Shown: piece after piece, positions 10,224-29,787 of the stretch | Numbering within the stretch: position 1 is the stretch's first letter | How the letters are laid out: the number at the start of each line of letters is the position of its first letter | Origin: Gemmatimonadaceae bacterium | GTDB lineage: Bacteria; Gemmatimonadota; Gemmatimonadetes; Gemmatimonadales; Gemmatimonadaceae | Assembly: GCA_051859245.1 (NCBI GenBank) | Contig: JBHYGA010000006.1 | Location: 96,001 to 160,000, forward strand | Direction of reading: 5' to 3' | DNA: 64,000 nt | Position numbers and translations under genes: made by a program | Notes under the pieces: generated by a model | Seen by the model: the letters and a program-made list of their open reading frames with translations, nothing else | Databases searched by the model: none | What the model was told of the DNA's origin: nothing

Positions 10224-10250
10224 TCAAGATCTGCTGAGCCCGGCCGACAC
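10224..10250 (+). promoter_or_regulatory. Sigma28 (FliA)-like promoter of flgL-fliW
   Basis: TCAA-N15-GCCGACAC versus consensus TAAA-N15-GCCGATAA. Confidence 0.6.
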
Positions 10251-11236: not shown

Positions 11237-11763
11237 GCGCTGGCTTCGACGGATCGAACGCCAGCGTCCCGCCCGACCCTTCCATGCTTGTGGCACCATC
11301 TGCTGTTGAAACGTCAGTTCCCGAGCGCGTTATCGAATCGCTCGTGCTTGGTGATACCGTCATTCCCGCGGAAAGTCTGTACACGTTTCCAGAAGGGATG
11401 CACGGATTCGAATCGCACCGAGAGTTTGCTCTGGTTCCGTGTGAACGCCCGAGTTTCTGGTGGTTGCAGGCGACGGACGAACCAGGCCTCGCATTTCTGC
11501 TGGTGGATCCGTTTGTGGCGCACGCCGGCTACGAGGTGGATCTCGGCGCGGGTGACGAGAAGTTTCTTGGACTCACGAACGCCTCCGATGCTCTGGTGCT
11601 CACGGTGGTGACCCTGCCTGCCGCGAAGGGACAGCCTGCCACGACCAACTTGCGCGGTCCGCTGGTGTTCAACACAGCGCAGCGTCGTGCACGGCAGATT
11701 GTGAGCAACGTGGAAAGCTACAGTCTCCACGCCACGGTAAACGTTACGCCACGCGATTCGTAG
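11233..11763 (+). CDS. fliW: Flagellar assembly factor FliW (CsrA antagonist)
   Basis: FPEGMHGFE, WLQ, LAFLLVDPF, TTNLRGPLVFN, ARQIV; ATGA-coupled to flgL. Confidence 0.92.
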   Translation: MSAGFDGSNASVPPDPSMLVAPSAVETSVPERVIESLVLGDTVIPAESLYTFPEGMHGFESHREFALVPCERPSFWWLQATDEPGLAFLLVDPFVAHAGYEVDLGAGDEKFLGLTNASDALVLTVVTLPAAKGQPATTNLRGPLVFNTAQRRARQIVSNVESYSLHATVNVTPRDS

Positions 11764-13018
11764 CAGCGGTGAGCGCCGAGTGGCGCCGCCGCTGAGCGGC
11801 CGCCACTCGTGCGACATCCTTCGGCAGCAACAATCCACGTGACGCAAGCGCACGCGCGTCGATGTCCGCCGGCATTCCATACTGTTCGAGCACCGCTGCG
11901 GTGAGCTGCTTGAGATAATCCGGAATGGGCTCGTTCGTCGGCGCTGCGAAATGGCGTGCAAAAAACTCGGGATGGTGCTCAACGGTGCCCGCCGGATCCG
12001 TGAGATGCGCAATTGCGCGCGCACCAAACTTCACGTGATCGTGCCACTGCTGCACATACGCGAGCCCCTCGTGCGCTAACTGCGTGCGAGACTCTCGGTT
12101 TGTGAGCAGTCGACGCAGTTGCTCCGTTGTGGCTCGCACGTCAGGGGTAATGCGGCACAGTGGACGCGGCGCGGGCAATCGCTCGATCTCCGGTGAGTCG
12201 CTCGTCGCCACTGCACACCCACTCGCCCATGCGTCCACGGTGGTGCGGCCGTGCATGGCATTGTTGGTTTGATCAATCACAACGTCCGCATTGCTGAAAA
12301 TACTGAGCAGCTCGGTGTGCGGAACGTTCTCGATCAGCTGGAGCTCAAATGCCACGCCCTCGGTTCGAAGTTGCTCCAGGGCCGCGAGAATCACATGTGA
12401 CCCTTTGCGCCCTCGACTCGACGGTGCATGCACCACCAACGGTACCTCACGGCCGTGCACTTGCGGCAAGTATTTCGCCAGCTGAATCGGAACGCTGGCG
12501 TGATGGTACGGTCGGATGGCCAGTGACGCGAAGTTCGGCTGCGCGTACACCACATCGGCAAACAGCTCCATCATGCGATGCGCGTGCATTGTCGCCGCAA
12601 GCGGCATCAGCTCGAACCCTTCGGCGAGTGACAGGCCGTGCTGCTCGTACAACTGCGAGTACGCCGCGCCGGCGCGAATGTCACAGCCAAGCGCCGTATA
12701 GATGATGCGCTTGCCCAGTTTGCGGTACAGCGGCAAATCGCTCAAATCATCTACGAAACTGTGACGGGCCCACTGGAAGTACAAGACATCATGCTGCGAG
12801 ACGAGGTTGCCGAACTCGATGGCGTCGAGGGCAGTGGTGGCGCGATTTGAGTAGTCGTAGTCGTACGTGTCAGGCCACCACTCGTTGCGCACCTTCACAA
12901 CCGTTGTTACGTGATGACCGTTGGCGCGAAACGCGTCGGCAACAACAGGAAGTAGTCCGGCGATTTCGCAGGTGCCAAGCAGAATGCGCAGCGGTCGGTC
13001 TGTGGGAAGCGGCTGCAT
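11744..13018 (-). CDS. GT-B fold glycosyltransferase
   Basis: LGCDIR, VVHAPSSRGRKGS, ADVVIDQ, DAWASG; last gene of the leftward glycan operon. Confidence 0.75.
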   Translation of the reverse strand: MQPLPTDRPLRILLGTCEIAGLLPVVADAFRANGHHVTTVVKVRNEWWPDTYDYDYSNRATTALDAIEFGNLVSQHDVLYFQWARHSFVDDLSDLPLYRKLGKRIIYTALGCDIRAGAAYSQLYEQHGLSLAEGFELMPLAATMHAHRMMELFADVVYAQPNFASLAIRPYHHASVPIQLAKYLPQVHGREVPLVVHAPSSRGRKGSHVILAALEQLRTEGVAFELQLIENVPHTELLSIFSNADVVIDQTNNAMHGRTTVDAWASGCAVATSDSPEIERLPAPRPLCRITPDVRATTEQLRRLLTNRESRTQLAHEGLAYVQQWHDHVKFGARAIAHLTDPAGTVEHHPEFFARHFAAPTNEPIPDYLKQLTAAVLEQYGMPADIDARALASRGLLLPKDVARVAAAQRRRHSALTAATNRVA

Positions 13019-13024
13019 GGTTGG

Positions 13025-14206
13025 TCAGATGCTCTGAAAATGCTCGGCGCCAACACCAGGAACACACACCGCACGGTGTGATGCGGCCCAGCGTTCAATG
13101 CTGTCGACAACTTGCGGCACGTGTTCGTGAATGCCGTGCCAGAGTGGTAGTCGCACGAGTGAGTCTGACGCACGAAGCGTGCGTTCAAGCGAGCCGTGTG
13201 TTCGCGCGTAACGATGGCCGGCCGGCGTATTGTGCAGCGGCTGGTAGTGGAACGTGGCGCCGAATCCGTCTTGTGCGAGAGAACGAATCAATGCGTTGCG
13301 TTCGGCTGGCGAGTTGCAGCGCACAAAGTAGATGTGGCCGTTGAGTGTTGCCTCAGACGGAACGACGGGTCGCATGAGCACCTGGTCGTGCTCCAGCGGT
13401 TCGAGCAGGTCGTGGTATGCGTACCAGCTTGCACGCCGGGTTTCGGTCACCATCGCACATGCTTCAAGCTGCGCCAGCAGAAAGGCGGCCGTGAGCTCGT
13501 TCGGCAGATACGACGAGCCGAGGTCACGCCAGGTGTAGCGATCCACCTCGCCGCGCAAATACTGCGAACGGTCCGTGCCTTTCTCGCGCAGCAGTTCGGC
13601 GCGCGCCATCCACTGGGGGCGCGACAAAAACGCGCCGCCTTCGCCAGCACCAATGTTCTTGGTGGCGTGAAAGCTGATACACCCCATGTCTCCGACTGCA
13701 CCCAGCGGTACGCCGCGCCACTGCGCGCCAATGGCTTGCGCGGCATCTTCAACAAGTGCGAGTCCGAACTCTGCCGCAATCGCGCCCAATGCATCGAGAT
13801 CAGCCGCGATACCGGCGTAGTGCACCACAAAGATCGCCTTGGTGCGCGACGTAATGGCGGCCCGCACGCATTGAGGATCAATGTTCATGGTGCGATCATC
13901 GATGTCGACAAACACTGGTGTCGCACCACGCAATGCCACCGCATTGGCGGTAGACGTGAAGGTGAACGACGGCATGATCACTTCGTCACCGGGCGACAGG
14001 TCCAGCAGCAGCGCGCACAGCTCCAGCGCCGCCGTTCCGGAATGCACCAGCAACGCACCGCGCCCCGGGTGCGCCAGCTCCAGCCACGATCGCACACGTT
14101 TGCTAAACGGCCCGTCGCCCGACAAATGTCCGTGGGCCATCGCCTCGGCAACATACGCCGCGCCGAACGGCGACACGTAGGGTCGTGTGAATGGAACGCG
14201 AATCAT
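13025..14206 (-). CDS. rffA: dTDP-4-amino-4,6-dideoxyhexose transaminase (WecE/RffA family)
   Basis: LSGDGPFS, PSFTFTSTANA, VEDAAQA, SFHATKN, EKGTDRSQ, GSSYLPNEL, FHYQPLH. Confidence 0.88.
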   Translation of the reverse strand: MIRVPFTRPYVSPFGAAYVAEAMAHGHLSGDGPFSKRVRSWLELAHPGRGALLVHSGTAALELCALLLDLSPGDEVIMPSFTFTSTANAVALRGATPVFVDIDDRTMNIDPQCVRAAITSRTKAIFVVHYAGIAADLDALGAIAAEFGLALVEDAAQAIGAQWRGVPLGAVGDMGCISFHATKNIGAGEGGAFLSRPQWMARAELLREKGTDRSQYLRGEVDRYTWRDLGSSYLPNELTAAFLLAQLEACAMVTETRRASWYAYHDLLEPLEHDQVLMRPVVPSEATLNGHIYFVRCNSPAERNALIRSLAQDGFGATFHYQPLHNTPAGHRYARTHGSLERTLRASDSLVRLPLWHGIHEHVPQVVDSIERWAASHRAVCVPGVGAEHFQSI

Positions 14207-15141
14207 GCGGCGACACGTGGACGTGATGTAAGCGATGCATCAGCCACTGGCGCGACCATCGTATTCGTAAACGATTCCTCGCGCACGATCTGCCGCAAAT
14301 AGGCGCCGTAGGCCGAGCTTCCGTAACGAGCGGCAAGCCGCTCCAGTTGTTCGGTAGAGATATATCCCAGTCGAAACGCGATCTCTTCCGGGCAACTCAC
14401 CTTGAGGCCCTGCCGCTCTTCAATCGCGTGCACAAATGCGGAAGCGGCCATCAACGATTCGGGCGTGCCCGTGTCGAGCCACGCTGTGCCGCGACCCAGG
14501 CGGTTGAGACGCAGCGTTCCTTCGCGCAGGTAACGCGCGTTGAGGTCAGTGATTTCGAGCTCACAACGTGGGCTGGGCGTGAGTTCGCGTGCATAGCGTG
14601 GCGCGTTTCCGTCATAAAAGTACAGGCCGACCACAGCGAGCGATGAACGCGGTACGGCGGGCTTTTCCTCCAGCGAAAGCACCCGTCCTGCGGCGTCAAC
14701 TTCGGCCACGCCATACGCCGATGGATCACGCACCTGATAACCAAAAATCGTGGCGCCTTCGCGCTGCGACGCGGCCTCGCGCAGTCGTGGCTCAAGGCCG
14801 CTGCCGTACAACACATTGTCGCCGAGCGCGAGGCACACACCGCGATCGTCAACGTGATGTTCACCAATGCACAGCGCCTCCGCAATGCCGCGCGGTGCAT
14901 GCTGCACTGCGTACGTCAAGCTCAAACCCAGCGATGAGCCATCACCGAGCAGTTCGCAAAAGCGCGGCAGCTCAGACGGCGTACTGATAATGAGCACGTC
15001 GCGGATGCCAGCCAGCATCATCGTGGAGAGCGGATAGTAGATGAGCGGCTTGTCGTACACCGGCAGCAACTGCTTGCTCACTACCGCCGTGAGCGGATAC
15101 AATCGCGAGCCGGCGCCGCCGGCGAGCAAGATGCCCTTCAT
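14203..15141 (-). CDS. rfbA: Glucose-1-phosphate thymidylyltransferase
   Basis: MKGILLAGGAGSRLYPLT, SKQLLPVYDKP, LEEKP, ELEITD, AWLDTGT. Confidence 0.96.
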   Translation of the reverse strand: MKGILLAGGAGSRLYPLTAVVSKQLLPVYDKPLIYYPLSTMMLAGIRDVLIISTPSELPRFCELLGDGSSLGLSLTYAVQHAPRGIAEALCIGEHHVDDRGVCLALGDNVLYGSGLEPRLREAASQREGATIFGYQVRDPSAYGVAEVDAAGRVLSLEEKPAVPRSSLAVVGLYFYDGNAPRYARELTPSPRCELEITDLNARYLREGTLRLNRLGRGTAWLDTGTPESLMAASAFVHAIEERQGLKVSCPEEIAFRLGYISTEQLERLAARYGSSAYGAYLRQIVREESFTNTMVAPVADASLTSRPRVAA

Positions 15142-16214
15142 ACGCGCGCTCCAAGTCCGAGGCGCGATGCGTCGTACGCACCGCCAAGAATCGATTGCCA
15201 CCAGCTGGCATGCTCGAGATACCACCGCACTGTTTGCTCGAGACCGTGCTCCATTGACGTTCGCGGTGCCCAGCCCAGCTCACGCTCAATGCGCGAGGGG
15301 TCAAGCGCGTAGCGCGTGTCGTGTCCCGGTCGGTCGGTGACAAACGCAATGGCGGAGGCGTGCGATTGTCCATCCGCACGCGGCGACAAACGATCCAGTG
15401 CAACGCACAGCGAGTCAACAACACTGCGATTTGACCGAACTTCACGCGCGCCCACAACGTACGTGCGGCCAACCGCTCCTGCTGCAGCGATCCGACACAA
15501 CGCGTTCGCGTGATCTTCAACGAAGATCCAGTCGCGTTGCTGCAATCCGTTACCATAGATCGGCAGAGAATCGCCGCGAAGCGCGCGCACCATCAGATGC
15601 GGAACCAGCTTCTCGGGAAACTGCCAGGGGCCGTAGTTGTTGCCACAGTTCGAGATCAGCGTGGGCAAGCCGTAGGTGGCGTGCCACGCCCGCACCAGAT
15701 GATCCGACGCTGCTTTGCTGGCCGCATACGGCGACGACGGCGCGTAGGGTGTTGCTTCAGTGAAAAACTCGTCTGGTGCAGCGCAGCCGAACACTTCATC
15801 AGTTGAGCAATGCACGAACCTGAAGGTGTGCGCGTGCGGTTCCGGCCTTCCGCGCCAGTACCGCGTGCAGGCGTCGAGCAGTACCTGTGTGCCGACCACA
15901 TTCGTTTCGATAAACGGACGCGCCGAGTCAATCGAGCGATCCACGTGCGTTTCAGCCGCGAGATGAAATACGACCGTTGGTTGATGCGTTGCGAGCGTAT
16001 GCGCTACCATATCGGAATCGCAGATATCACCCACGACCAGTTCATGGCGCGTGTCGTGCGGCCACCCCTCGCGCGCCAGAGGATTAGCCGCGTACGTGAG
16101 TTTGTCGAACGACACGACGCGGTCGTATTGCTCGGCCAGCAGCGCGCGTACAAGTGCGCCGCCAATGAAGCCCGCTCCACCAGTGACCAATGCCACGCAG
16201 GGCGCATTAGTCAT
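15138..16214 (-). CDS. rfbB: dTDP-glucose 4,6-dehydratase
   Basis: VTGGAGFIG, DKLTYA, HLAAETHVDRSI, STDEV, YAASK, NNYGPWQFPEKL, DRPGHDTRY. Confidence 0.96.
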   Translation of the reverse strand: MTNAPCVALVTGGAGFIGGALVRALLAEQYDRVVSFDKLTYAANPLAREGWPHDTRHELVVGDICDSDMVAHTLATHQPTVVFHLAAETHVDRSIDSARPFIETNVVGTQVLLDACTRYWRGRPEPHAHTFRFVHCSTDEVFGCAAPDEFFTEATPYAPSSPYAASKAASDHLVRAWHATYGLPTLISNCGNNYGPWQFPEKLVPHLMVRALRGDSLPIYGNGLQQRDWIFVEDHANALCRIAAAGAVGRTYVVGAREVRSNRSVVDSLCVALDRLSPRADGQSHASAIAFVTDRPGHDTRYALDPSRIERELGWAPRTSMEHGLEQTVRWYLEHASWWQSILGGAYDASRLGLGARV

Positions 16215-17422
16215 GCTGCCACCTTGCTGAGCGCGAGTTGTTGCATGAGCTCCGCGAATACTGGTGCACGTTTGTGCCATCCGAGTGGCGCAACGTGCCG
16301 AGCCGCAGCCACACCACGACGCCGTGCGTCGGCGGTATCGCTGTATGCCAGCTCCAGTGCGTCCACGATTTCATCAACGTCTGCTGAGCCCCATCCATCA
16401 GTGCCACGCACGCCAGCATCCGCTGCGTTTACGGGGGACAACGAGGTAAGCGGATAGGCAAATGCTGGCTGCGCAAGTTCCTTGTGCGCCGTGTTGTGCG
16501 ATACGATGCAGGGTACACCGCTAGCCATGCACTCCAGCATGGCCGTTGACGGCGTTGCTTCCGCGCGATTGGGGAACAACCCCACATGCGCCTCGCGAAC
16601 GATGTCTGGCAATAAACCGTTGCTCACAAGGCCAACGTCCACCACGCTGTCGGCTGGAATGCCAAACTGTGAGAGCCACGGCGCAATCTGGAGCTGCCCT
16701 CCAACAAACGGTGGAAGCCCGAGCGAAGGCGTGGTTCCTGGAAAGGTGGAAAGCTGTTCGGGCCACGGATGTTGCCACGCGCAAACGAGCAACGCATCAG
16801 GATGACGCTGTCGAAACGCGCGCACTGCGTTGATGACCAGATCCTGCCCCTTTCGATAGTCCAATCGCCCTGCAGAGTAGATCACGAAACGACCGGCGAA
16901 CACGTTGCGCCGCGCGCCGGGATGGAAACGACGTGAATCCAGACCAGTGGCGAACTGCTGAACGTTTGTGAGCCCTGCTGACTGCAGCAGCTCGGTTTGC
17001 CACGGCGATGCCGCGAGCAGCGTCGATTCACGCTTGCCACGTTCCAGCGTTGCCGCGTCGATCACGGTGTCGGTAAGCGATGCAAAACCGACTGATCGGG
17101 CGAAGTCCCGATCCAGTGGATTGGGCAGCGCACGCAGCTCGTCGCCCAGAGTACGCACCAGGGTTGCCGGAACACGAAGCGACGTTGGCGTACGCAGTAA
17201 CCGATCCAATGCCACGGCACCATGCTGCATGAACTCGCGCAGTTTGGTAATCTCCGCGTCGCTGCAAAACTGAACCCATGAACTCGCCGCGAGCTTGGGT
17301 ACAACCTGTAGCTGCGAAGATTCGTGAAGCTGCAGTGACAGATGCAGCGAGCGCAACTCGGCGCTGGAGATCGTGCCCGCCGGGCAGTCAAGCATGATTT
17401 GCGGAACGGTCCTGGTTGTCAT
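16211..17422 (-). CDS. GT4-like glycosyltransferase
   Basis: GRLDYRKGQD, GLFPNRAE...MLECMASGVP; ATGA-coupled on both sides. Confidence 0.85.
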   Translation of the reverse strand: MTTRTVPQIMLDCPAGTISSAELRSLHLSLQLHESSQLQVVPKLAASSWVQFCSDAEITKLREFMQHGAVALDRLLRTPTSLRVPATLVRTLGDELRALPNPLDRDFARSVGFASLTDTVIDAATLERGKRESTLLAASPWQTELLQSAGLTNVQQFATGLDSRRFHPGARRNVFAGRFVIYSAGRLDYRKGQDLVINAVRAFRQRHPDALLVCAWQHPWPEQLSTFPGTTPSLGLPPFVGGQLQIAPWLSQFGIPADSVVDVGLVSNGLLPDIVREAHVGLFPNRAEATPSTAMLECMASGVPCIVSHNTAHKELAQPAFAYPLTSLSPVNAADAGVRGTDGWGSADVDEIVDALELAYSDTADARRRGVAAARHVAPLGWHKRAPVFAELMQQLALSKVAA

Positions 17423-18642
17423 GCCGCGATTCCCCGTGAACGTCGTGCCTGCGAGGCGAGCACCGCCTGTTCCACTATTGACAACCACTGCCGGCCTTCG
17501 TGCTCCCACGTGAATCGTGCGCTGACTTCGGCGGCGCGAGCACGGTAGGCATCAAGAGGTTGGCTCATAAATGCCTCAATCGCCAGCGCGAAGTCGCGCG
17601 GTGTGGCCAGATGCGCGTTTACGCCAACGCCGAGATCACCCACAAAACGACGAAGCTCAGGACCGTGGGACGCGAGGATCGGTAAACCAGCAGCCAGAAA
17701 CTCGTACAACTTGTTCGGCGACACCAACCACGTGTTCAGGTCAGAGTGCGGATACGGAATGATGCCGGCGTCTGCACCAACCGTCCAGCTGAGCAGTTCA
17801 GCGGCCGATTTCTCCGGCACGAAATGCACGCGAGTGCCGAGCAGTCCACGTTCGCGGGCGCGCTCCTTGAGCGCTTCGCCAACCGCTGAACTTTTGCCCA
17901 TGAACGCGAGGATCACATCTGGCGATTGCACCAGCGCCATGCCGTCAACGAGCTCTTCGAGGTTCCGGCTTGCAGCAAGGTTTCCCTGATACAGCAGCAC
18001 ACGCTGATGCGGTTGCGCACCGAGAAAGGCGCGCATGGGGCTGTCTTCGGCGCGCAGCACAGCGCTGTGTCGTCGGCTGGGACAGTTCAGGACCGTGTGC
18101 GGACGCGGACAGGCATAGCGCATGGCCATCAGGTCGGCGATGCTGTCGTTCACCGTAACGAGCGCGTCTGCGTACGGCACCAACGCCCGCTCCATGGATT
18201 CGAGCGTTGATTCCTGCGATTTCGTGAACGGCTGCGACGGGTAGTACTCGTGCGCGTCGTAGATGAGCGCGGCGTTGTGATGCTGCGCGGCAATGATGCC
18301 GGCTGCGAGCTGCGGCAAGTCGTTCGCGATCACAACTTCGGCGCGAAACGCAAGTGCAGCACTGAGCACACGTCTATGCCAGGCAAAGTGTTTGCCGGCC
18401 GCAATGACCGCGGCGTCGCCGTGATCAGTAGTTGGACCGGCCGGCACGTGCGGGCCCGTCACCCTGAAGATTGGCACATCCGGATAACTCGCTTCATCGG
18501 CCAGATCATCTGGCGCCGGACCGGCAATCACGAGTGTAGGCCAACCCGCTTCCGTCAGCAATCGTGCGCCGTCGAGAATACGACGATCAACCCGATCGTC
18601 GATGCAGAGCGTTACGATGCGATACTGCGCGCGGAGATCCAT
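17419..18642 (-). CDS. GT4-like glycosyltransferase
   Basis: IYDAHEYY, LYQGNL, ADAGIIPY, SPNKLYEFLAAGLP. Confidence 0.88.
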   Translation of the reverse strand: MDLRAQYRIVTLCIDDRVDRRILDGARLLTEAGWPTLVIAGPAPDDLADEASYPDVPIFRVTGPHVPAGPTTDHGDAAVIAAGKHFAWHRRVLSAALAFRAEVVIANDLPQLAAGIIAAQHHNAALIYDAHEYYPSQPFTKSQESTLESMERALVPYADALVTVNDSIADLMAMRYACPRPHTVLNCPSRRHSAVLRAEDSPMRAFLGAQPHQRVLLYQGNLAASRNLEELVDGMALVQSPDVILAFMGKSSAVGEALKERARERGLLGTRVHFVPEKSAAELLSWTVGADAGIIPYPHSDLNTWLVSPNKLYEFLAAGLPILASHGPELRRFVGDLGVGVNAHLATPRDFALAIEAFMSQPLDAYRARAAEVSARFTWEHEGRQWLSIVEQAVLASQARRSRGIAA

Positions 18643-18669
18643 GATGTGAAGCGGACGGAATATCGGGTG

Positions 18670-20571: not shown

Positions 20572-20661
20572 GGAAGATCTGTGGTGACGCGAGCAGGCAT
20601 GCGACTGGCAGAAGGTGGACAACGCGGGCAGTTCTGGCCGCCCGTCACGGATCACTCTACA

Positions 20662-20677
20662 AGCACAAACTGTGCCG
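20662..20677 (-). promoter_or_regulatory. Sigma54-like -24/-12 promoter of the leftward glycan operon
   Basis: Minus strand CGGCACAGTTTGTGCT has GG-N10-GC and resembles TGGCACG-N4-TTGCW. Confidence 0.65.
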
Positions 20678-20730
20678 TTTGCAAGTTGATGTTATGCAAT
20701 GACTTATCGAACAAGTCGCGCAGCGGTATT

Positions 20731-20745
20731 CGGCAATACTTGCCG
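20731..20745. promoter_or_regulatory. Palindromic enhancer-like site 1 (CGGCAA-TAC-TTGCCG)
   Basis: Perfect 6-3-6 inverted repeat; the same motif recurs about 80 bp downstream. Confidence 0.65.
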
Positions 20746-20809
20746 GTTCTAGCGATTTTACAGGCAGAGATCGGCTGGGGAGCTTAACGCGCGGTACAGT
20801 GCTTTCTTG

Positions 20810-20828
20810 ATCGGCAATAGTTGCCGAT
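20810..20828. promoter_or_regulatory. Palindromic enhancer-like site 2 (ATCGGCAA-TAG-TTGCCGAT)
   Basis: Perfect 8-3-8 inverted repeat between the two divergent sigma54-like promoters. Confidence 0.68.
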
Positions 20829-20911
20829 GCTGCCCGCAGGATCGGCAAGAGCGTCGCAGGGCGCTCTCGTGTAAAATCATTTAAATCTTTGCTATTGAAC
20901 GACTTGGGCTT

Positions 20912-20927
20912 TGGCACGAATCGTGTA
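20912..20927 (+). promoter_or_regulatory. Sigma54-like promoter of the rightward glycan operon
   Basis: TGGCACG-AATC-GTGTA: perfect -24 element, variant -12 (GT instead of GC); preceded by an AT-rich IHF-like tract at about 20875-20905. Confidence 0.55.
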
Positions 20928-20974
20928 TTTATGAGTCGCGTTCGCGTGACGCATTCACCGCTTCGCACCTAGCC

Positions 20975-22852
20975 ATGACAAGTTCTGCCGCCTCAACCTC
21001 CGCGCCTGATCGCATTGACAGCGTCCAACTCACCGCGGACGGCGCGCCGCGTTTTGTTGTGCCGGCCCGTCCAGACCACCCGGATTGGGCGCAGGCCGCC
21101 GAGCTCGAGCCCGCGGGCGGCGTGGCGGCGGAAGTGCGCGTGTTCCTTGACGAGCAGATCAGCACCGGTGATCTGGTCATCGACCTCGCACCCGGACTTG
21201 GCTTCGTGGCGCTCAGCGCGGCCACCGCGCCGAACGGTGTGGCCACGGTCTTTGTGGCCGGCCTCGAAGAGTCGGACCTGACCGCGATGCAGGATGCAGC
21301 CGCGGACGCTGGGGCCTGGGTGGAGGGCATGTCGAGCGAGCCGTGGGAAGAAATCGCCGACGCCCTGGCCTCGCGGCTGGAGCCGGATGGTGGTGTGTTT
21401 GTGCATGCCGCGGCCTCGGATGTGGTGCTCGTATGCGATCGACTCAGCGCGCTCTGTGCGTCGGGCCGCCTGCTGGCGCTGTGCGTGAGTGATGTGATCG
21501 ATGATGCGCAGTGGCCCGCGCTTCAGGCCGCGCTGCAAAGCGCCAAACTTTCCGCCTGCCAGTTGGCGGAGCAGGATGGGGCCGTCGTGCTCGTTCCGGT
21601 GCATCACGCGCCCGCGTCGGCGCTGATCGCGGTGCCGGCCAACCTGTTTGAGGCGGCGCCAATTCATGATGATGTCAGCGCCGCGCCCAGCAACTATGAA
21701 GACGCGATCTTTTCTGTGCTGCCTGAAGCCGAGACCGGTCGCACGGCACTGCACGAGTCATGGGATGCCCTGCGCGACGGACTGGCACTGAGCGCGCCGC
21801 ACTCGCGAACCGGATACGGCGTGACGGGTGCACACCTGCTGCGCGCACTGCAAGCCCAAGGTGTTCCCGTCGCGTTCTTTCCGATGGGCGCGGTGGATCG
21901 TTCCATTACACACAACGCCGCACTTGATCAGGCGTTGCAGGCGCCCGCGGCGTTTCGTGCGGATGTGCCGAGTGTGCGCCTGGCACAGGCGTTTGATCTC
22001 GCACAGCACGCGGGGCGCGGACCACGCGTTGGCTTCACGATTTTTGAGACGGACGCATTCAGCGACAGCGAAATGCAGCATCTGCGTATGCAGGACGCCG
22101 TGATTGTCTGTACGCCGTGGGCGCGCGACGTGTGCTACGCAAACGGACTTGCTGATCGTCCGGTGTTTGTCGTGCCATTGGGTGTCGATCGCGACATCTA
22201 CAATGAACATGTGCAGCCAGTGCGCACGTGGCCGGAGACGGTCTTCCTGCAAGTGGGCAAGTTGGAGACACGCAAGGGCCAGCTGGAATTACTGCGTGCT
22301 TTTGAAGCGGCATTCACGCCGAGCGATGCTGTTCGTCTGGTGCTCGCCTGTCACAATCCATTTGTCAAAAAGGACGCGTTCGAGGCCGAACTCGCACCGT
22401 TCCGGACCTCGCCGATGGCGGCGCGCATCACGATTCTCGGCAGTGAGCTTGCGACGTCACGCGATGTGGCGGCGCTGATGGCGGCCGCTGATTGCGGCGT
22501 GTTCCCCGCGCGTGCCGAAGGATGGAATCTTGAAGCGCTCGAGATGCTGAGCATGGGCAAACCGGTCATTGCCACGGCAGCGACTGCGCACACCGCATTC
22601 ATGACTGAACACAATGCGCGTCTGATCACAATGAATGCAATGGAGCCCGCGCTTGGTGGTCGCATTGCGGGCCGCTGGCCGGCGTGGGGCGCGGCGCAGC
22701 ACGAACAGTTGGTGGAGCGACTGCGCGACGTGCATCGCGAACGTACGAGTGGATCGTTGCAGCGAAACAACGCAGGCATCGCCACGGCACAGGCGCACAG
22801 CTGGGATGCGAGTGCGTCCGCGCTGCTATCCGCGCTTTCTCACATCGCGTAA
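20975..22852 (+). CDS. GT4-like glycosyltransferase with N-terminal methyltransferase-like domain
   Basis: N-terminal GDLVIDLAPGLGFVAL (SAM motif I-like); C-terminal TGYG, GKLETRKGQ, FPARAEGWNLEALEMLSMGKP. Confidence 0.8.
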   Translation: MTSSAASTSAPDRIDSVQLTADGAPRFVVPARPDHPDWAQAAELEPAGGVAAEVRVFLDEQISTGDLVIDLAPGLGFVALSAATAPNGVATVFVAGLEESDLTAMQDAAADAGAWVEGMSSEPWEEIADALASRLEPDGGVFVHAAASDVVLVCDRLSALCASGRLLALCVSDVIDDAQWPALQAALQSAKLSACQLAEQDGAVVLVPVHHAPASALIAVPANLFEAAPIHDDVSAAPSNYEDAIFSVLPEAETGRTALHESWDALRDGLALSAPHSRTGYGVTGAHLLRALQAQGVPVAFFPMGAVDRSITHNAALDQALQAPAAFRADVPSVRLAQAFDLAQHAGRGPRVGFTIFETDAFSDSEMQHLRMQDAVIVCTPWARDVCYANGLADRPVFVVPLGVDRDIYNEHVQPVRTWPETVFLQVGKLETRKGQLELLRAFEAAFTPSDAVRLVLACHNPFVKKDAFEAELAPFRTSPMAARITILGSELATSRDVAALMAAADCGVFPARAEGWNLEALEMLSMGKPVIATAATAHTAFMTEHNARLITMNAMEPALGGRIAGRWPAWGAAQHEQLVERLRDVHRERTSGSLQRNNAGIATAQAHSWDASASALLSALSHIA

Positions 22853-22862
22853 CCTGCACGGG

Positions 22863-24005
22863 ATGATCGCGGCCGACATGCGATTGTTGACGATTGCCTT
22901 TGCGGGCACGGATCAAGGCGGTGTGCACCGAAAGCTCGGCGAGCAGGTGCGCGAGATTCGTTGCACCGTGCCGCATACACGGTCACTGGTGTTCGCCGAT
23001 ACGCGAGTAGCGGCAGCTTCTGCAGATGCTCCGTATGAGCTGATCGATCTGGCCGGTGGTGGATTTGATCCGGTCAGTCGCGCCCGCGCGTTTCAGATCT
23101 GTCGCGACGCGGTGGCCGAACACAAGCCGGATGTGGTGTATATGCGCTATCCGCTCTACGATGCGCATGTCGAACAGTTTGTGCGTGAAGCGCCGCCCGT
23201 GGTCTTTGAGATTCAAACAAAGTTTGATCTTGAAATGCCGGCCTCAGCCGGTGCAGTAGAACGCGAGTGGGCGACGCGCATTTTGCCGCTCAGTGCGGGT
23301 GTTGTGGCGGTTACGCCCGAGATTCTGGCGTACGAACGAGGCCGAGCCGGTTGGAATATTCCGGGGCACGTGATGTCAAACGGCGCCGATCCCGCAGCGA
23401 TTCCGTTCGCGTTACCAACACTCGCCAGTGATCGTGTTGATCTGTTGTGTGTGGCGTCGTTTTACCTGTGGCACGGCATTGATCGCGTGATCTGCGGAAT
23501 GGCCGCCGAACCTGATGTGCGCGATGTGCATCTCAATCTTGTGGGCGACGGACCTGCGCTCGCGCCGTTGCTCAAGCTGGCGCACGAGCTTGGAGTGGCT
23601 GATCGCGTGCACTCCGCGGGACTCAAATCTGCGAATGAACTTACGCCGTCGTTCGAGCGCGCACATCTGGCGCTCGGTGTGCTTGCACCACAGCGCAAAG
23701 GATTGACGGAGCTCTCGGCGCTCAAACATCGCGAGTATGTACTGCGTGGTGTTCCGTTCGTGACCGCGGGCCGGGACATTGACTTCGCGGGCAACGTGCC
23801 GTGGATGCGCACAGTCGACTCCGACGACTCCCCGATTTCGCCGCGCATGCTGCGCGCGTTCGCCATGTCGTGGACACACGAAAAGCGTCGCCGACAGATT
23901 CGCGCGTGGGGTGAAGCGAATGTGAGCTGGGCCGCCAAGATTCCGCCGCTGCTCGAGTTCCTCTCGGCGCGCCGGCGCGTGGCATCACTCGTAGACGCGG
24001 CCTGA
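22863..24005 (+). CDS. GT4-like glycosyltransferase
   Basis: PDVVYMRY, SNGAD, WHGIDRVI, LVGDG, ALKHREY. Start 22863 or 22878. Confidence 0.82.
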   Translation: MIAADMRLLTIAFAGTDQGGVHRKLGEQVREIRCTVPHTRSLVFADTRVAAASADAPYELIDLAGGGFDPVSRARAFQICRDAVAEHKPDVVYMRYPLYDAHVEQFVREAPPVVFEIQTKFDLEMPASAGAVEREWATRILPLSAGVVAVTPEILAYERGRAGWNIPGHVMSNGADPAAIPFALPTLASDRVDLLCVASFYLWHGIDRVICGMAAEPDVRDVHLNLVGDGPALAPLLKLAHELGVADRVHSAGLKSANELTPSFERAHLALGVLAPQRKGLTELSALKHREYVLRGVPFVTAGRDIDFAGNVPWMRTVDSDDSPISPRMLRAFAMSWTHEKRRRQIRAWGEANVSWAAKIPPLLEFLSARRRVASLVDAA

Positions 24006-24012
24006 GACGGAC

Positions 24013-25755
24013 ATGTGCGGAATCACCGGACTTCTTGACTTCACGCGTGGTGCCAACGAGAGCGCGATTGACGCGTTCACCGACGCGCTCGCGCACCGTG
24101 GACCTGATGGTCGCGGTACATGGTGCGCTGGTCCGATCGCCCTCGGGCACAGGCGCCTTGCGATTCTGGATCCGTCGCCGGCAGGTGCGTGTCCTATGGA
24201 GTACCACGCCCCCGATGGACACATCCTGCGTATCACGTTCAACGGTGAGGTCTACAATTTTCTTGAGTTGCGCGCCGAACTGCAGCGCGATGGCTACCCA
24301 TTTCGTACCGACACGGACACGGAAGTTGTCGTGGCCGCGTGGCATCGCTGGGGCGCCGCGTGTCAGACACGATTCAACGGCATGTGGGCGTTTGCTATCT
24401 GGAATGATGTCACGCAGACACTGGTGCTTTCGCGCGATCGATTTGGCGTGAAGCCGCTATATGTGTACGGACAGGGCACGATGATTGCTTTTGCGTCGGA
24501 GATCAAAGCTTTTCTGGCGCTGCCTGGTATCACCCGTCGTTTGAATGCAGAAGCCGCGTCGGCGTTCTTCACGAATCCCAGTGCCTATGATGGAATCAGT
24601 GCCGGCACTGCGCTTGATGGCGTCATGCGAGTGGCACCTGGACATTCGCTTACCATCAGCCCGAAAGGCACAGCCGGATTTGAACGGTGGTGGGACACGT
24701 CCGCGCATCTGCCGGAGGTGCCGACGCGCCATGAAGAGCAGGTCGCCCAGTTTCGCGAACTGTTTCTTGATGCCGTGCGCCTTCGCATGCGAAGCGATGT
24801 GGCGATTGGCACATCGCTGTCCGGTGGTCTCGATTCGAGCGCCGTTGCCTCAGCGATGGCAGAAGTTGCACGCGCCAGTAGCAGCGCCGAACGCACGCGA
24901 TGTGCAAGCGATTGGCAGCGCACATTCATTGCCACGTTTCCTGGTCATCAGGTGGACGAGCGTGTGTTCGCGGAAATGGTGGTGCAGCACACAGGCGCGT
25001 CGCCGCACTACTGGAGCTTTCATCCGGGTGCCGCACTTCGCGATTTGCCGGCCAGTGTGCTCGCGCTCGACGACCTGAGTGCCGCACCGGCGGTTCCGAT
25101 TCTGAATATCTATCGGCTCATGCGGACGCACGGCGTGGTCGTCACTCTCGATGGACACGGCGGCGACGAACTGCTCGCCGGTTATCCGTGGTATCGCGAC
25201 ATTCCGCTGGCGGACGTAAACGCCGCACTGGGCCGCGATTTTCACATCACGCACTTGCCGTCCATTCTGCGCAACTACGACGGTTGTTCGATGGCGAACG
25301 GTGTGGAGGTGCGCTCACCCTTCATGGATTGGCGCTTGGTCACGTTCGCCTCGGCGCTGCCCGCTCAAGCGAAGCTCTCGCCCACGTACACCAAGCAGAT
25401 TCTGCGCGATGCGCTGGTCGGCATCTTGCCTGAAGGCATTCGCACACGCGTAAGCAAGCTGGGCTTCGAATCACCCCTTGTTTCGTGGGCGAACGGAGCG
25501 CTCGGCCCGGTACTGCTCGCCGCGAGCAAGACGGATGCGTGGCGCGAAGCGCCGGCGTCGGCGCAGTCAGCCGCCGTGGCATCCATTGTCGCCGAACGAA
25601 CGCGCAGCCGCAATTTTACCGAGGCTGATCGTGTGGCGGTCGCATTCGCCTACCGCTTGCTGAACTTTGTGCTGTGGAGCGAACACTATCTTGGCGCGGG
25701 TGATCGCATCACCCGAATGCTCGGCGGTGCTGCGCCGTTGGCACGCGCTGGATAA
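24013..25755 (+). CDS. asnB: Second asparagine synthase-like glutamine amidotransferase
   Basis: MCGITG, HRGPDG, GHRRLAILD, FNGEVYN, LSGGLDSS, DGHGGDELLAGY, EVRSPFMD, KLGF. Confidence 0.9.
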   Translation: MCGITGLLDFTRGANESAIDAFTDALAHRGPDGRGTWCAGPIALGHRRLAILDPSPAGACPMEYHAPDGHILRITFNGEVYNFLELRAELQRDGYPFRTDTDTEVVVAAWHRWGAACQTRFNGMWAFAIWNDVTQTLVLSRDRFGVKPLYVYGQGTMIAFASEIKAFLALPGITRRLNAEAASAFFTNPSAYDGISAGTALDGVMRVAPGHSLTISPKGTAGFERWWDTSAHLPEVPTRHEEQVAQFRELFLDAVRLRMRSDVAIGTSLSGGLDSSAVASAMAEVARASSSAERTRCASDWQRTFIATFPGHQVDERVFAEMVVQHTGASPHYWSFHPGAALRDLPASVLALDDLSAAPAVPILNIYRLMRTHGVVVTLDGHGGDELLAGYPWYRDIPLADVNAALGRDFHITHLPSILRNYDGCSMANGVEVRSPFMDWRLVTFASALPAQAKLSPTYTKQILRDALVGILPEGIRTRVSKLGFESPLVSWANGALGPVLLAASKTDAWREAPASAQSAAVASIVAERTRSRNFTEADRVAVAFAYRLLNFVLWSEHYLGAGDRITRMLGGAAPLARAG

Positions 25756-25761
25756 CGGTTC

Positions 25762-27531
25762 GTGAACGCCTCGAGTCAGCATGCCGAAAGTGCGTCGCGC
25801 CTGTTCGTGGGCATTCTCACGCACAACGGATTGCATCACACAGTGCGTTGCCTCGATTCGTTGCGGGAGCACACACAGTCGCCGTGGCAAGCGCTCGTGC
25901 TCGACAACGCGTCGAGCGACGACACGCCCGCGTACTTGCGGCAGCTTGATGACGCGCGCATCACCGTGCACTGTGGCGACCAGAATCTCGGTGTAAGCGG
26001 CGGTCGCAACTGGTTGATCACGCAGCTGCTGCCGCAGATGCAGGACAATGACTGCATTGTGCTTCTCGACAACGATATCGAGGTCTTCGACGGCTGGGAT
26101 GCACCGTTTGTTGAAGCCTTCGCCGCACATCCGAAACTCGGCGTAGCGGGTCGTTGGGCATTTTCCATGCGCGTACACGACACCTGGCGCGACATTCTGG
26201 GTGAAGACAGCGCGACGTCCGGACCAGTGGACACGGTGCAGGGATGCTGCTTCTGGATTCGCGCCGCGACTGCTCGTGATGTTGGCGTGTTCGACGAAGC
26301 ACTCGGCGGATTCTGGCATGAAGACGACGACTACTGCATTCGTGCGCTCACTGCGGGATGGGACGTACGCCGCGTTGCGAGCGACGCGATTGTGCATCAC
26401 GAACACGGCTCGGGCGTGGCGCTACGTCCGGACAAACTCGTTGGTTCGTGGCGGAATCAGGCGTACCTCGCGAATAAATGGCGCTCCATGAACGCCATTG
26501 GGCTGCTCGGCGTACCGATTCGCCCGCTCACTGACGAGCTACAGCCAGTGTGCAACGCACTGTCGCAGCGCACGAAACGACCCATACTACGTACCGAGGT
26601 CAACTCGGCGATCAACAGTGCCGCGCTGCTGATGCACGCGACACTTGAGGCAGACCATGTCGCAGCGATAGCGACACCGCTCGCGCGCATGATGCTCAGT
26701 GATGCAACTGCAGGTGAAGGTGAAGTCGCTGAGAAGGCCAGAGCCGCACTGGCGAGCGTGACGAATACCGTCGCCGCACGCAGAGTCAGCGCTCCCGCCG
26801 GCGCGGCGTCCCGCGCGTTCAGCAGCGTGTGTACCCCCGAGAGTTGGGAAGACGCACGCTGGTCCGATTCGTTCACGCATGGATTTCGCAACGGAGCCGG
26901 TCTCGATTTTTCAACGCGCACTGAATCCATGTGGCGTGACGGGCAGTTGCTGCATGCACTGCGTGCAACCGGCGTACTGAAGCGCGACGCGCGCGTACTG
27001 TTTGTGGGTCAATCGTTTGAACCGCTGATCGCGGCACTGTCGTACCATGTGCGCGAGCTGGTCATTGCTGACCGCGAGCTGCTCAGCGATGCTCAAGTGA
27101 TCGGGCGTGCGCAACAGATGTTGGGGAACGCGCGGCTGACGTATGCAACCTGGCCGGCTAACCCTGCAGAACAGTTCGATGTGGTTGTTTGCGCCAACGC
27201 GTCACGCTATGCACGCGCGGGAGACTTTCCCGAACTGCTACGGGCACTCGCGAATCATACGCGGTCTGGTGCGCTGACTGCCGTTGGCGTCTCCGTGCGC
27301 GTGGCAGGGCCGGCCGACGGAACGTGGGTTGAGCTCGACACGCTCGCGGATGATCACACGTTGCAACAGTCAGGTCTTCGTCGCGTGGGCGGATTAAATG
27401 CCGATGTGAGCGACGAAGTGCTGCGCGCGGCTGTTCCTGATCGATTGCGGACAACGTTGCGGCCATCACTCGCGCGGGCGATCGGTGCGCACTGTGTCTC
27501 AATGGCAACGCTGGTCGCAAAGCGCGTTTAG
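25762..27531 (+). CDS. GT2 glycosyltransferase with C-terminal methyltransferase-like extension
   Basis: VLDNASSDDT, NLGVSGGRN, LLDND (DxD), GVFDE, EDDDY; the C-terminal ~200 aa has RVLFVG...FDVVVC. Confidence 0.82.
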   Translation: MNASSQHAESASRLFVGILTHNGLHHTVRCLDSLREHTQSPWQALVLDNASSDDTPAYLRQLDDARITVHCGDQNLGVSGGRNWLITQLLPQMQDNDCIVLLDNDIEVFDGWDAPFVEAFAAHPKLGVAGRWAFSMRVHDTWRDILGEDSATSGPVDTVQGCCFWIRAATARDVGVFDEALGGFWHEDDDYCIRALTAGWDVRRVASDAIVHHEHGSGVALRPDKLVGSWRNQAYLANKWRSMNAIGLLGVPIRPLTDELQPVCNALSQRTKRPILRTEVNSAINSAALLMHATLEADHVAAIATPLARMMLSDATAGEGEVAEKARAALASVTNTVAARRVSAPAGAASRAFSSVCTPESWEDARWSDSFTHGFRNGAGLDFSTRTESMWRDGQLLHALRATGVLKRDARVLFVGQSFEPLIAALSYHVRELVIADRELLSDAQVIGRAQQMLGNARLTYATWPANPAEQFDVVVCANASRYARAGDFPELLRALANHTRSGALTAVGVSVRVAGPADGTWVELDTLADDHTLQQSGLRRVGGLNADVSDEVLRAAVPDRLRTTLRPSLARAIGAHCVSMATLVAKRV

Positions 27532-27572
27532 GCTGTCGCACTACAGAAACGCAAAACGCTTGATGCTTGTTA

Positions 27573-27998
27573 TCACGGCGAAACAGGGAGCTGCAACACT
27601 AGAACCTTGAAGCCATTCTGCATCAAACCATCAGCGTAAACCGTCAGTGTTCTGGCCGGTTCAGTCGCGATCATCAGCGTGTGCCGAAATACACGGTTCG
27701 AATCAGTGCAAGTGCGCGATCGCTCGGCGGTCAACCGCACAAACAACGAGTCATTGCGGTAGATGTCGCTCGCGTCGACTATTTGCGCGCACGCTTCTGG
27801 CTCGAAGCGCCCGTCTACGTACACTCGGAGACGTTCTGTTGCCGACTGATTCGAGGGCACCCACACGCTATCTACTCGCGCCGCCACGAAATCATTCGGC
27901 GGGCCTAGTGAACGATCGCAGCCGCCAAACGGCAGCAGAGCCATCAGCAAAACGCCGAGGAGGGCTGGACGCATGGAGATCTGTCTGCGCACGGACAT
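27573..27998 (-). CDS. Hypothetical lipoprotein
   Basis: Hydrophobic signal LLGVLLMALLPFGGC with lipobox-like Cys; beta-rich body with two more Cys. Start uncertain (27998 or 27974). Confidence 0.55.
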   Translation of the reverse strand: MSVRRQISMRPALLGVLLMALLPFGGCDRSLGPPNDFVAARVDSVWVPSNQSATERLRVYVDGRFEPEACAQIVDASDIYRNDSLFVRLTAERSRTCTDSNRVFRHTLMIATEPARTLTVYADGLMQNGFKVLVLQLPVSP

Positions 27999-28160
27999 GA
28001 TCGTTTCGCGCATCATCCTGCTCATCCAGGGATGAAAGAAGCGTGCGAATAACAGCGACTGTTGCATTCCAGATAGTCGAACGTAACCCAGACTACACCG
28101 CGGGTTCCATTGATCGCTCGGAATTGGGCCGCGTCCGAATCTGAGGCGACAGCTGGTCGC

Positions 28161-29585
28161 TCAGCGGCGCGTGTCAAGACTGTGCGCTTGAATTCGCGTA
28201 CTGACCTGCTCCACCACCGAAGCCCAGTCACCACTCGTGGGCTGACGTATAAGTTCGAGCGTGGGGTACCAGACGCTTTGCGTACCACGCAATCCCCAGC
28301 GCCAATCGGGCACGTGCTGCAGCATGACCAGCGTACGCACGCCCATCGCGCCAGCCAGATGCGCGATGCCGGTATCAGTGGTCACTAACACATCAAGCTC
28401 GGCAAGTTGTGCGGCGGTATCGGCCCACTCTGATAGCGCGCCAACTGTGCGCACATGCGCGGGCAACGCCGAGACATCGGTGCCCTGTTGCAATGACAGC
28501 ACCGAAAGGTCCGGTACCTTAGCGAGTTGCTCGAGCAGCATCAACAACGCGTCCGAACTCAAGTCACGCGTAAATCGCCCGGGAAAGGCGGCGTTGCCAG
28601 ACCAGACAAGGCCGACGCGTCGGACAGCCCGGTCAACCTCCGTTGCAACAACGCGCGCTCGCAAATACGGTACGCGTGTTGCCTGCACATCGACATCGAG
28701 CTCAAGGCGATACGGCAGCGACAGCAGCGGCACGTGAAAATCCGTCTCCACACGTGAACCGCGTGCGACGGCATCGTAGCCGTTTGCCACGAACAACTCG
28801 ACCGCGTGCGGGTGACACTCCACCACGACTCGAGCCGCGCCGCGCTCGGCCAACAGGTGCACGAACCGCAGAAACTGAAACTGGTCTCCCACGCCCTGTT
28901 CTGCGGTCACCAGTATCGAGCAGCCGGCAAGCGCTTCACCGTGCCAGGGACGCGCGCTCGTGGCCGGAACAGGCAGCGGCCGGTTCTCAAATAGTGCCCA
29001 CCCGTGCGCCGAGATGCGGTCGATGAGCGACGTGTACGCTGCTTGCACTCGCGTGGGCGCATGTCCGGGTCGCACCTGCTCCGCCTGTTTCAACCACCGG
29101 CGCGCACCAACCAGGTCGCCGAGATCGTGTCGGACCTGCGCCGCGGTGAGCAAGAACGCCGCTTGCCTCGGCGCGAGTTGCGCAGCGCGCTGCGCGAGTG
29201 GCCAAGCTTCGGTCACACGACCCTGCGTACGAAGTGCGCCAGCAAGCGCCGACAGCGCGGCTGGATCCTTACCATGTGATTTCACCACGTGCTGCAGACA
29301 CATTGTCGCTTCAACCGGCGCCCCCGCGTCGAGCAGCGCGGTGCCAAGCGCGTACGCGGCGGCGCTGTCTTGCCAGTCACCCGACGCAAACGCGTCGAGC
29401 AGCACCGCGCGTCGGCTCACCCCATCGTCCCGCAACGTGTGCACGTTGGCCAGGGCAATCGCGATCGAGACATCGGATGGAGCGGCAAGTCGAGCGCGTT
29501 CAAATGCTGCGGCGGCCGCCGTTAGGTCCGACGCGGTCATTGCCGCCTCGCCCTCGAGCAGCGCCCGCACTAGCTCCGCGCTCAC
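28161..29585 (-). CDS. TPR-repeat protein fused to a GT9-like glycosyltransferase domain
   Basis: N-terminal Ala-rich TPR-like helices; WHGE...EQGVGDQFQFLRF, PLLSLP, VGLVWSG, TDTGIAHLAGAMG, DWRW, WYPTLELIRQ. Confidence 0.85.
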   Translation of the reverse strand: MSAELVRALLEGEAAMTASDLTAAAAAFERARLAAPSDVSIAIALANVHTLRDDGVSRRAVLLDAFASGDWQDSAAAYALGTALLDAGAPVEATMCLQHVVKSHGKDPAALSALAGALRTQGRVTEAWPLAQRAAQLAPRQAAFLLTAAQVRHDLGDLVGARRWLKQAEQVRPGHAPTRVQAAYTSLIDRISAHGWALFENRPLPVPATSARPWHGEALAGCSILVTAEQGVGDQFQFLRFVHLLAERGAARVVVECHPHAVELFVANGYDAVARGSRVETDFHVPLLSLPYRLELDVDVQATRVPYLRARVVATEVDRAVRRVGLVWSGNAAFPGRFTRDLSSDALLMLLEQLAKVPDLSVLSLQQGTDVSALPAHVRTVGALSEWADTAAQLAELDVLVTTDTGIAHLAGAMGVRTLVMLQHVPDWRWGLRGTQSVWYPTLELIRQPTSGDWASVVEQVSTRIQAHSLDTRR

Positions 29586-29724
29586 AAAACCCGTCCTTCT
29601 ATATGAAAGAGCGTAGCGTCATCGAAAAACGTGGCAAAATGCACGATCAACGCACGTTCAGACGCGCCGCGTAACGGTGGGTTCCCAGGCCGTGAGAGCG
29701 CCAAAACTTGTTGAATCAAAACGC

Positions 29725-29751
29725 TCAAGTTCCTCGCCGATGTGTCGATAG
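29725..29751 (+). promoter_or_regulatory. Sigma28-like promoter of fliC
   Basis: TCAAGTTC-N11-GTCGATAG versus TAAAGTTT-N11-GCCGATAA; an overlapping alternative CAAA-N15-GCCGATGT lies at 29717-29743. Confidence 0.72.
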
Positions 29752-29787
29752 AACACTTTGACCGCGATCCACTTCCCGGATCCGGAC

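Follow-up and report, generated by a model that had tools for sequence, protein, structure and literature searches.

Whether the sugar-building genes between fliW and fliC of a Gemmatimonadaceae bacterium serve to glycosylate its flagellin, and which enzyme would attach the first sugar, are the questions raised by the locus described here. The window (the whole stretch analysed, 64,000 nt) belongs to contig JBHYGA010000006.1 of a 99.9% complete genome. Open reading frame (ORF) and family scans revealed eleven soluble sugar-building genes in two divergent operons between fliW (11233-11763) and fliC (29831-30586), together with a gene for a tetratricopeptide repeat (TPR) protein with a GT9-like GT-B glycosyltransferase (GT) domain, hereafter TPR-GT. 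Considering their position, the lack of membrane genes, the co-occurrence with fliC and the promoter motifs shared with flagellar genes, we read the block as a cytoplasmic flagellin O-glycosylation island with a probability of about 0.8, in line with a first-pass annotation made from the sequence alone; that flagellin itself is modified is what we infer. Flagellin glycosylation islands are already known, and what is new here is a nonulosonate-free homologue of the flagellin O-glycosyltransferase FlmG with a GT9 motif, a slot whose content varies across the family, and the evidence on the enhancer. Our literature search, with subscription journals outside its coverage, returned nothing on Gemmatimonadota flagellin glycosylation or TPR-GT9 flagellin enzymes, as the annotation, which knew of no description in this phylum, had supposed; PMC10581226 contains no word beginning with 'glycosyl'.

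The gene slot between fliW and fliC

The minus-strand operon comprised seven genes (asnB, GT4, GT4, rmlB, rmlA, wecE and GT) and the plus-strand operon four (GT4 fusion, GT4, asnB and a GT2-methyltransferase fusion), and the TPR-GT gene was divergent from fliC in this genome. All glycan genes listed in the first-pass annotation (six GTs, TPR-GT, rmlA, rmlB, wecE and two AsnB-like genes) were found where it had placed them (Table 1). It had called the six GTs stand-alone; the number stood, and the description failed for two of them, which carry an extra methyltransferase-like domain. The N-terminal domain of the GT4 fusion gave a weak profile match (HH-align probability only 19.7%), and the C-terminal domain of the GT2 fusion had a feature score of 0.95, with Methyltransf_25 in 3/7 members. 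The wecE product scored 476.9 bits against NF008687 (cut-off 375) and also exceeded the curated cut-off of TIGR02379. The absence of a flippase (wzx), polymerase (wzy), ABC exporter, phosphoglycosyltransferase (PGT) and ligase, noted in the same annotation, was borne out by family scans, which gave no match to any of them in the island. The maximal 19-residue hydropathy among island proteins was 1.75, compared with 2.78 in a membrane control. The GC content was 61.5% in the island and 61.9% in the remainder of the window.

The gap between fliW and fliC is a variable cassette in Gemmatimonadaceae, and TPR-GT is its constant part. Among 15 relatives with a locus spanning the gap, TPR-GT was present in 10, the slot was empty in four, and one held rmlB only. 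In a 61-genome sample, the 15 genomes with TPR-GT all fell within the 22 carrying fliC. Across 221 family genomes, a tally that takes in the unpublished genome G242 (a handle of ours, like the other G, L and C numbers) and in which related genomes are not independent, the TPR-GT catalytic domain was found in 54 of the 83 fliC-positive and 7 of the 138 fliC-negative genomes. The synteny check proposed with the annotation linked TPR-GT to fliC, from which it lay no more than 4.5 kb away in 47 family genomes. The closest named relatives of TPR-GT were Gemmatimonadaceae records, which agrees with the phylum the annotation had thought probable.

The GT4 fusion was the second most constant slot gene, and the cargo was of several types. 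It could combine rhamnose-pathway genes (rmlA, C and D, rmlB being present or absent) and a multi-domain GT of approximately 2,200 aa, pair a DegT aminotransferase with a radical SAM enzyme, comprise nucleotidyltransferase, dehydratase and C-methyltransferase genes, include genes resembling LuxC/LuxE, or be limited to between one and three TPR-GTs. None of 20 slots contained an ORF of at least 150 aa with two predicted membrane helices (controls 7, 4 and 1), and no export, polymerase or PGT gene was found in them. A fusion of TPR-GT with a GT4 abutted fliW on the same strand in G100, and homologues of the GT4-like protein at 16211-17422 were fused to TPR-GT in G029, G064, G100 and G175.

Several variants of the slot were also observed. 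In G001 (L037:7715-9373), TPR-GT is inverted and points the same way as the GT4 fusion and fliC, indicating that the divergent layout is not universal. The GTs of approximately 2,200 aa (three GT4, one GT2 and TPR) adjoin the rhamnose-pathway genes in G012 (L032:6991-13833), L034 and L049. LuxE-like and AMP-binding genes occupy the slots of G085 (L151:3101-16396) and G217 (L155:5789-9104), which suggests acylated flagellin glycans; the G085 slot additionally holds LuxC-like, GNAT and GT41 genes. Similar islands, with TPR-GT and AsnB or GT4 homologues near fliC, were seen in the Bacteroidota records L081 and L093.

TPR-GT as a homologue of FlmG

FlmG is described as necessary and sufficient for flagellin modification, with flagellin bound via its TPR (PMC7591256; bioRxiv 10.1101/2022.03.25.485807), and as restricted to Caulobacterales (bioRxiv 10.1101/2023.12.03.569772). 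For comparison, flbT loci were taken from 251 Alphaproteobacteria, of which the 30 best were used. At 11 of them, flbT adjoined a gene for a TPR protein of 570-640 aa that matched the Gemmatimonadota catalytic profile. One of these proteins fell in a cluster represented by an entry called 'protein FlbA', FlbA being what we take to be the old name of FlmG, and another shared 66-68% identity with a protein of Brevundimonas subvibrioides and with entries annotated as 'glycosyltransferase FlmG' or 'flagellar protein FlbA'. Homology was measured against these flbT-adjacent proteins, which are tied to the named FlmG/FlbA by identity, and not against the C. crescentus sequence itself.

When full-length profiles were compared, TPR-GT matched the flbT-adjacent proteins with a probability of 100% (E 5.8e-57, 467 columns), and the catalytic domains alone gave 99.9% (E 5e-36, 278 columns), indicating, at the level of sequence profiles, that TPR-GT and the FlmG clade have homologous catalytic domains. 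TPR-GT may or may not be an orthologue of FlmG: a 157-row quick tree set the flbT-adjacent proteins apart, and a 46-row subset did not reject a joint TPR-GT/FlmG clade (p-AU 0.84, approximately unbiased test). The EQGxGD motif occurred in 51 of 52 Gemmatimonadota domains and in all 11 FlmG-clade domains. The first-pass annotation had found no initiating transferase recognisable, a statement that the catalytic profiles overturn, and its suggestion that the TPR-GT9-like protein might be the initiator is strengthened. On this homology, TPR-GT is probably the initiating flagellin transferase, and by analogy with FlmG its TPR domain may bind flagellin. The annotation had also recognised no Maf-type transferase; MAF_flag10/DUF115 (PF01973) likewise had no matches in the genome, in a search whose control rang only in archaea and whose sensitivity to bacterial Maf is unproven.

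The GT9 character of the protein was visible in both motif and fold. TPR-GT matched PF01075 (GT9) below the cut-off (E 0.003). The GT9 motif DTGxxH, written as D[ST]xxxH, was found in 49 of 52 Gemmatimonadota domains, 88 of 94 others and none of the 11 domains of the FlmG clade, and in TPR-GT it aligned with VDTGLSHL of WaaC (E 0.1). The structure model (predicted local distance difference test score, pLDDT, 93) matched WaaF, WaaC and TibC (Z 16.5-16.8, root-mean-square deviation 2.9-3.4, 230-245 aligned). A sequence search of PDB with TPR-GT returned TPR matches only, and Foldseek returned mostly TPR, OGT and SPY entries.

Like TPR-GT, FlmG of Caulobacter crescentus and B. subvibrioides is soluble, carries an N-terminal TPR and a C-terminal GT-B domain and is encoded beside flagellin genes; the whole catalytic domain is homologous and EQGxGD is shared. 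FlmG differs in its length (about 600 aa, versus 474 aa), in its nonulosonic-acid donor (pseudaminic or legionaminic acid, whereas the TPR-GT genome has no NeuB) and in its lack of DTGxxH, which TPR-GT keeps. Among solved structures, WaaC/WaaF and TibC/AAH come closest to the catalytic domain in fold. TibC is described as similar to WaaC and as O-heptosylating a protein (PMC4358343), and shows that this fold can O-glycosylate proteins. TPR-GT differs from WaaC/WaaF and TibC in having a TPR domain, and the identity is 10-15%. TibC, for its part, has an iron finger and forms a dodecamer.

Predicted promoters and enhancers of the two operons

The 400 bases separating the operons contained back-to-back sigma-54-type promoters and two enhancer-like palindromes. 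In the window, the enhancer pattern had four matches (two sites, both strands) versus 0.13 expected, and the initial motif, CGGCAA-N3-TTGCCG, occurred twice in the genome, both times in the island. The link of the enhancer to flagellar genes emerged only with a relaxed matrix. The enhancer matrix was built from 16 sites upstream of fliL in nine relatives, a tenth region (L067) having been mis-extracted and giving no sites. With this fliL-trained matrix, the five top-ranking intergenic sites genome-wide were those of the island, flgB, the island, fliL and flgB, where flgB was identified by its position before flgC. Enhancer and sigma-54 promoter occurred together in 5 of 1812 upstream regions, namely those of flgF, fliL, flgB, the right operon of the island and one unrelated gene, and direct inspection found both ahead of the left operon. 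The same arrangement preceded the GT4 gene of the right operon at 10 of 11 anchors, in a set in which the L078 anchor was mis-set and the left-operon anchor of G014 was not at an ATG. At -12 of the right-operon promoter, GT replaces GC in this genome; G012, G008, G007 and G010 have GC.

The promoters of flgL-fliW and fliC were called with a consensus that we take to be that of sigma-28. A sigma-54-dependent response regulator is encoded back-to-back with flgL in those relatives whose loci span it, and from its position it is probably the flagellar activator that binds the enhancers. Judged by conserved motifs only, island expression would fall within the flagellar regulon; the motifs on both operons thus bear out the earlier view of the island as wired into the flagellar hierarchy. 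The palindrome represents a candidate flagellar sigma-54 enhancer for Gemmatimonadota, put forward here as new.

Other elements were seen in these regions. An identical 11-base box and a TCTATT element lie at 9391 and 10282 (minus strand), preceding the regulator and an inserted methyltransferase gene; it seems that the regulator promoter, which overlaps the flgL leader, was duplicated with this insertion. The fliC leader (29680-29830) is highly conserved and contains GGAC/GGAT/GGAG repeats, possibly CsrA sites; csrA adjoins flgK on contig C6. Upstream of the fliC sigma-28 promoter, a GTGA..GTGAGAG element is kept even when the slot is empty. Two enhancer-like locations of G000 away from the flagellar region, C7:13129-13686 (with a sigma-54 promoter) and C5:492474-492530, precede genes of unknown function.

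Predicted glycan and competing explanations

A true NeuB was absent from the genome, whose two weak PF03102 matches were 3-deoxy-D-arabino-heptulosonate 7-phosphate synthases, and from all 7 genus genomes; of the 47 genomes with a fliC-adjacent TPR-GT, 9 carried NeuB and 38 did not. In a genome without NeuB, the donor of TPR-GT cannot be pseudaminic or legionaminic acid. Since TPR-GT also occupies slots without any sugar-pathway gene (G051, G254, G080 and G024), the first sugar would come from a housekeeping nucleotide sugar. The genome has heptose-pathway candidates (an HldE-like gene, a GmhA-like gene just under the cut-off and two classical GT9 genes), and its single cytidylyltransferase gene, which adjoins pyrG and a KdsA-type gene, is likely kdsB. 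ADP-heptose is tentatively our leading single guess; nucleoside diphosphate-hexoses and -deoxyhexoses, taken together, come close to even odds, and CMP-Kdo is unlikely. For a later position of the glycan, dTDP-4-amino-4,6-dideoxygalactose (dTDP-Fuc4N) is predicted, because RmlA, RmlB and WecE are present without rmlC, none being found in the genome. Elsewhere in the family, NeuB occurred in 17 of the 29 flagellated genomes without TPR-GT, which may have another flagellin system.

In the proposed mechanism, the sigma-54 activator next door would switch on both island operons with the fliL, flgB and flgF operons, so that they precede the sigma-28-driven fliC in expression. TPR-GT would bind flagellin through its TPR domain, as FlmG does, and, before the 251-aa flagellin is exported, place the first sugar on its Ser/Thr residues. 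The six other GTs would lengthen the glycan; their presence, a difference from FlmG, implies an oligosaccharide. RmlA-RmlB-WecE would provide dTDP-Fuc4N, the AsnB enzymes would amidate carboxyl groups or acylate an amino sugar, and the methyltransferase domains would cap the glycan. Cargo exchanged between species would create surface diversity on a filament without outer domains. The gene fliC is the sole flagellin gene of the genome and encodes core domains only. The Ser/Thr share of the flagellin middle averaged 0.285 with TPR-GT (n=25) and 0.243 without (n=12), with overlapping ranges and among related genomes, and we do not count it as support. An identity comparison revealed no co-evolution specific to TPR-GT and fliC.

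The Pseudomonas syringae islands (fgt1, fgt2, vioABMRT) offer a parallel. According to PMC3927599, the flagellin glycan there contains rhamnose and a modified 4-amino-6-deoxy sugar, and is built by an aminotransferase, a methyltransferase and several GTs; the viosamine island is paralleled by dTDP-Fuc4N, predicted at a later position here. Rhamnose, for its part, is matched by the rhamnose-pathway genes in slots of relatives. The island here differs in its FlmG/GT9-like initiator, its WecE-type aminotransferase, its two AsnB enzymes and the absence of an acyltransferase. Fgt1 is of the GT2 type.

Several observations weigh against the flagellin reading or parts of it. The pairwise match of TPR-GT to the B. 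subvibrioides protein was weak (26%, E 0.001), and the flbT-adjacent proteins formed a separate long branch in a 157-row quick tree. TPR-GT is missing from 29 of the 83 flagellated family genomes. In G004 (84% complete), the slot is empty despite a 92%-identical fliC with an equal Ser/Thr share, and the GT4 fusion was likewise not found. Outside Gemmatimonadota, 4 of 70 TPR-GT loci, many of them short, lay near flagellin-region genes, compared with 9/9 Gemmatimonadota loci, and the TPR-GT arrays of cyanobacteria indicate that the wider family is not flagellin-specific. Acceptor binding by TPR-GT is proposed on the analogy with FlmG. The enhancer seed pattern was picked after the island sites had been seen, and the test was not fully blind. 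As DTGxxH is also present in 88 of the 94 non-Gemmatimonadota members, the motif is no proof of heptose, and rmlA and rmlB, being single-copy, could serve other glycans too.

The alternative that survives best, which we consider improbable, is a mosaic slot, in which TPR-GT alone modifies flagellin with a single housekeeping sugar and most cargo makes sugars for lipopolysaccharide, exopolysaccharide (EPS) or PEP-CTERM glycoproteins in trans. Several slots do hold TPR-GT alone, the genome has one copy each of rmlA and rmlB, AsnB enzymes are a usual component of O-antigen and EPS loci, and other contigs carry PGT, Wzy-like, Wzc-like and exosortase genes (those of the initiation, export and polymerisation type on C5 and C9). 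But the flagellar enhancer and sigma-54 promoter stand on both cargo operons and are kept across differing cargo, a cargo GT is fused to TPR-GT in other genera, and no slot contains a membrane gene. Less probable again is that the acceptor of the island glycan is not flagellin and belongs elsewhere in the flagellum or the motility stage (FliD, FlgL, or a hook, sheath or pilus protein). The proximity of TPR-GT to fliC in 47 genomes and the action of the characterised homologue FlmG on flagellins (PMC7591256) argue for flagellin, whereas the predicted sigma-54 timing fits hook and basal-body genes, TPR-GT homologues occur in other flagellar clusters and non-flagellated phyla, and the identities of TPR-GT follow both flgL (rho 0.67) and fliC (0.63). 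An ordinary surface-polysaccharide cluster beside fliC by chance, as the many GT and sugar-pathway genes and the empty slot of some close relatives might suggest, is very improbable and largely refuted by synteny, given the recurrent position, the fliC co-occurrence, the flagellar promoter motifs and 20 slots without an export, polymerase or PGT gene.

Within the flagellin reading, a bolder and rather doubtful version is that Gemmatimonadaceae heptosylate flagellin Ser/Thr via a TPR-guided GT9 enzyme related to FlmG, with ADP-heptose as the source of the heptose, and that swappable cassettes add an O-antigen-like glycan replacing the missing outer domains. If so, one of the shortest flagellins would carry an amidated, methylated or acylated glycan, and FlmG would have branched off, specialised for nonulosonates, from a large and unstudied superfamily of enzymes that O-glycosylate proteins in the cytoplasm. 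More generally, the island would extend FlmG-type flagellin glycosylation past Caulobacterales and past sialic-acid-like donors, and give the very common unannotated 'TPR-GT9' proteins a testable function. Glyco-engineering could make use of a soluble protein O-glycosyltransferase that is targeted by its TPR and takes a new donor, and it follows from the variable cassette that the filament would diversify through its glycans, for instance against phage.

Table 1. Features of the window around the fliW-fliC slot
Positions	Strand	Feature	Remarks
7822..9291	-	Sigma-54-dependent response regulator	REC-AAA-HTH
9406..10191	-	Class I S-adenosylmethionine (SAM) methyltransferase	Between regulator and flgL promoter, just outside island
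10224..10250	+	Sigma-28-type promoter of flgL-fliW	
10325..11763	+	flgL and fliW	Left slot border; family scans
11744..13018	-	GT-B glycosyltransferase	PF13524
13025..14206	-	WecE-type dTDP-4-keto-6-deoxyglucose aminotransferase	Predicted product dTDP-Fuc4N
14203..15141	-	rmlA	Sole genome copy; TIGR01207 above curated cut-off
15138..16214	-	rmlB	Sole close copy in genome; TIGR01181 above curated cut-off
16211..17422	-	GT4-like glycosyltransferase	
17419..18642	-	GT4 glycosyltransferase	
18670..20571	-	AsnB-like glutamine amidotransferase 1	N-terminal Cys; TIGR01536 above curated cut-off
20663..20677	-	Sigma-54-type promoter, left operon	Also in G002, G006, G014
20731..20745	.	Palindromic enhancer-like site 1	CGGCA-N5-TGCCG
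20812..20826	.	Palindromic enhancer-like site 2	
20912..20926	+	Sigma-54-type promoter, right operon	
20975..22852	+	GT4 fusion	N-terminal degenerate FkbM-methyltransferase-like domain (weak)
22863..24005	+	GT4-like glycosyltransferase	
24013..25755	+	AsnB-like amidotransferase 2	TIGR01536 above curated cut-off
25762..27531	+	GT2 fusion	C-terminal class I SAM-methyltransferase-like domain
27573..27974	-	133-aa lipoprotein-like ORF	No known family
28161..29585	-	TPR-GT, TPR + GT9-like GT-B protein	474 aa; FlmG homologue, predicted initiating flagellin O-glycosyltransferase
29725..29751	+	Sigma-28-type promoter of fliC	Conserved in 12/12 aligned upstream regions
29831..30586	+	fliC, predicted acceptor	251 aa; 27 Ser, 21 Thr; 25,828 Da unmodified; 25,696 Da lacking Met1
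30669..32732	+	fliD	Right slot border; then fliS, FliT-like gene, che genes

Among the remaining genes, the 133-aa ORF, which is not at this place in G002, is likely a passenger. The methyltransferase next to the regulator was present in 2 of the 221 family genomes and is a possible glycan-tailoring enzyme. A 1004-aa protein encoded at 3413-6427 (minus strand) joins an APH phosphotransferase, an M23 and a class III aminotransferase domain. Ahead of the che genes, the region 33920-34271 contains a sigma-28-type promoter and a 99-aa ORF, which presumably resembles flgM. In the wider TPR-GT family, non-flagellated cyanobacteria (L118, L134) carry TPR-GT domains arrayed in tandem, together with a homologue of the island GT4, and some GT9-like clusters are rich in phage members.

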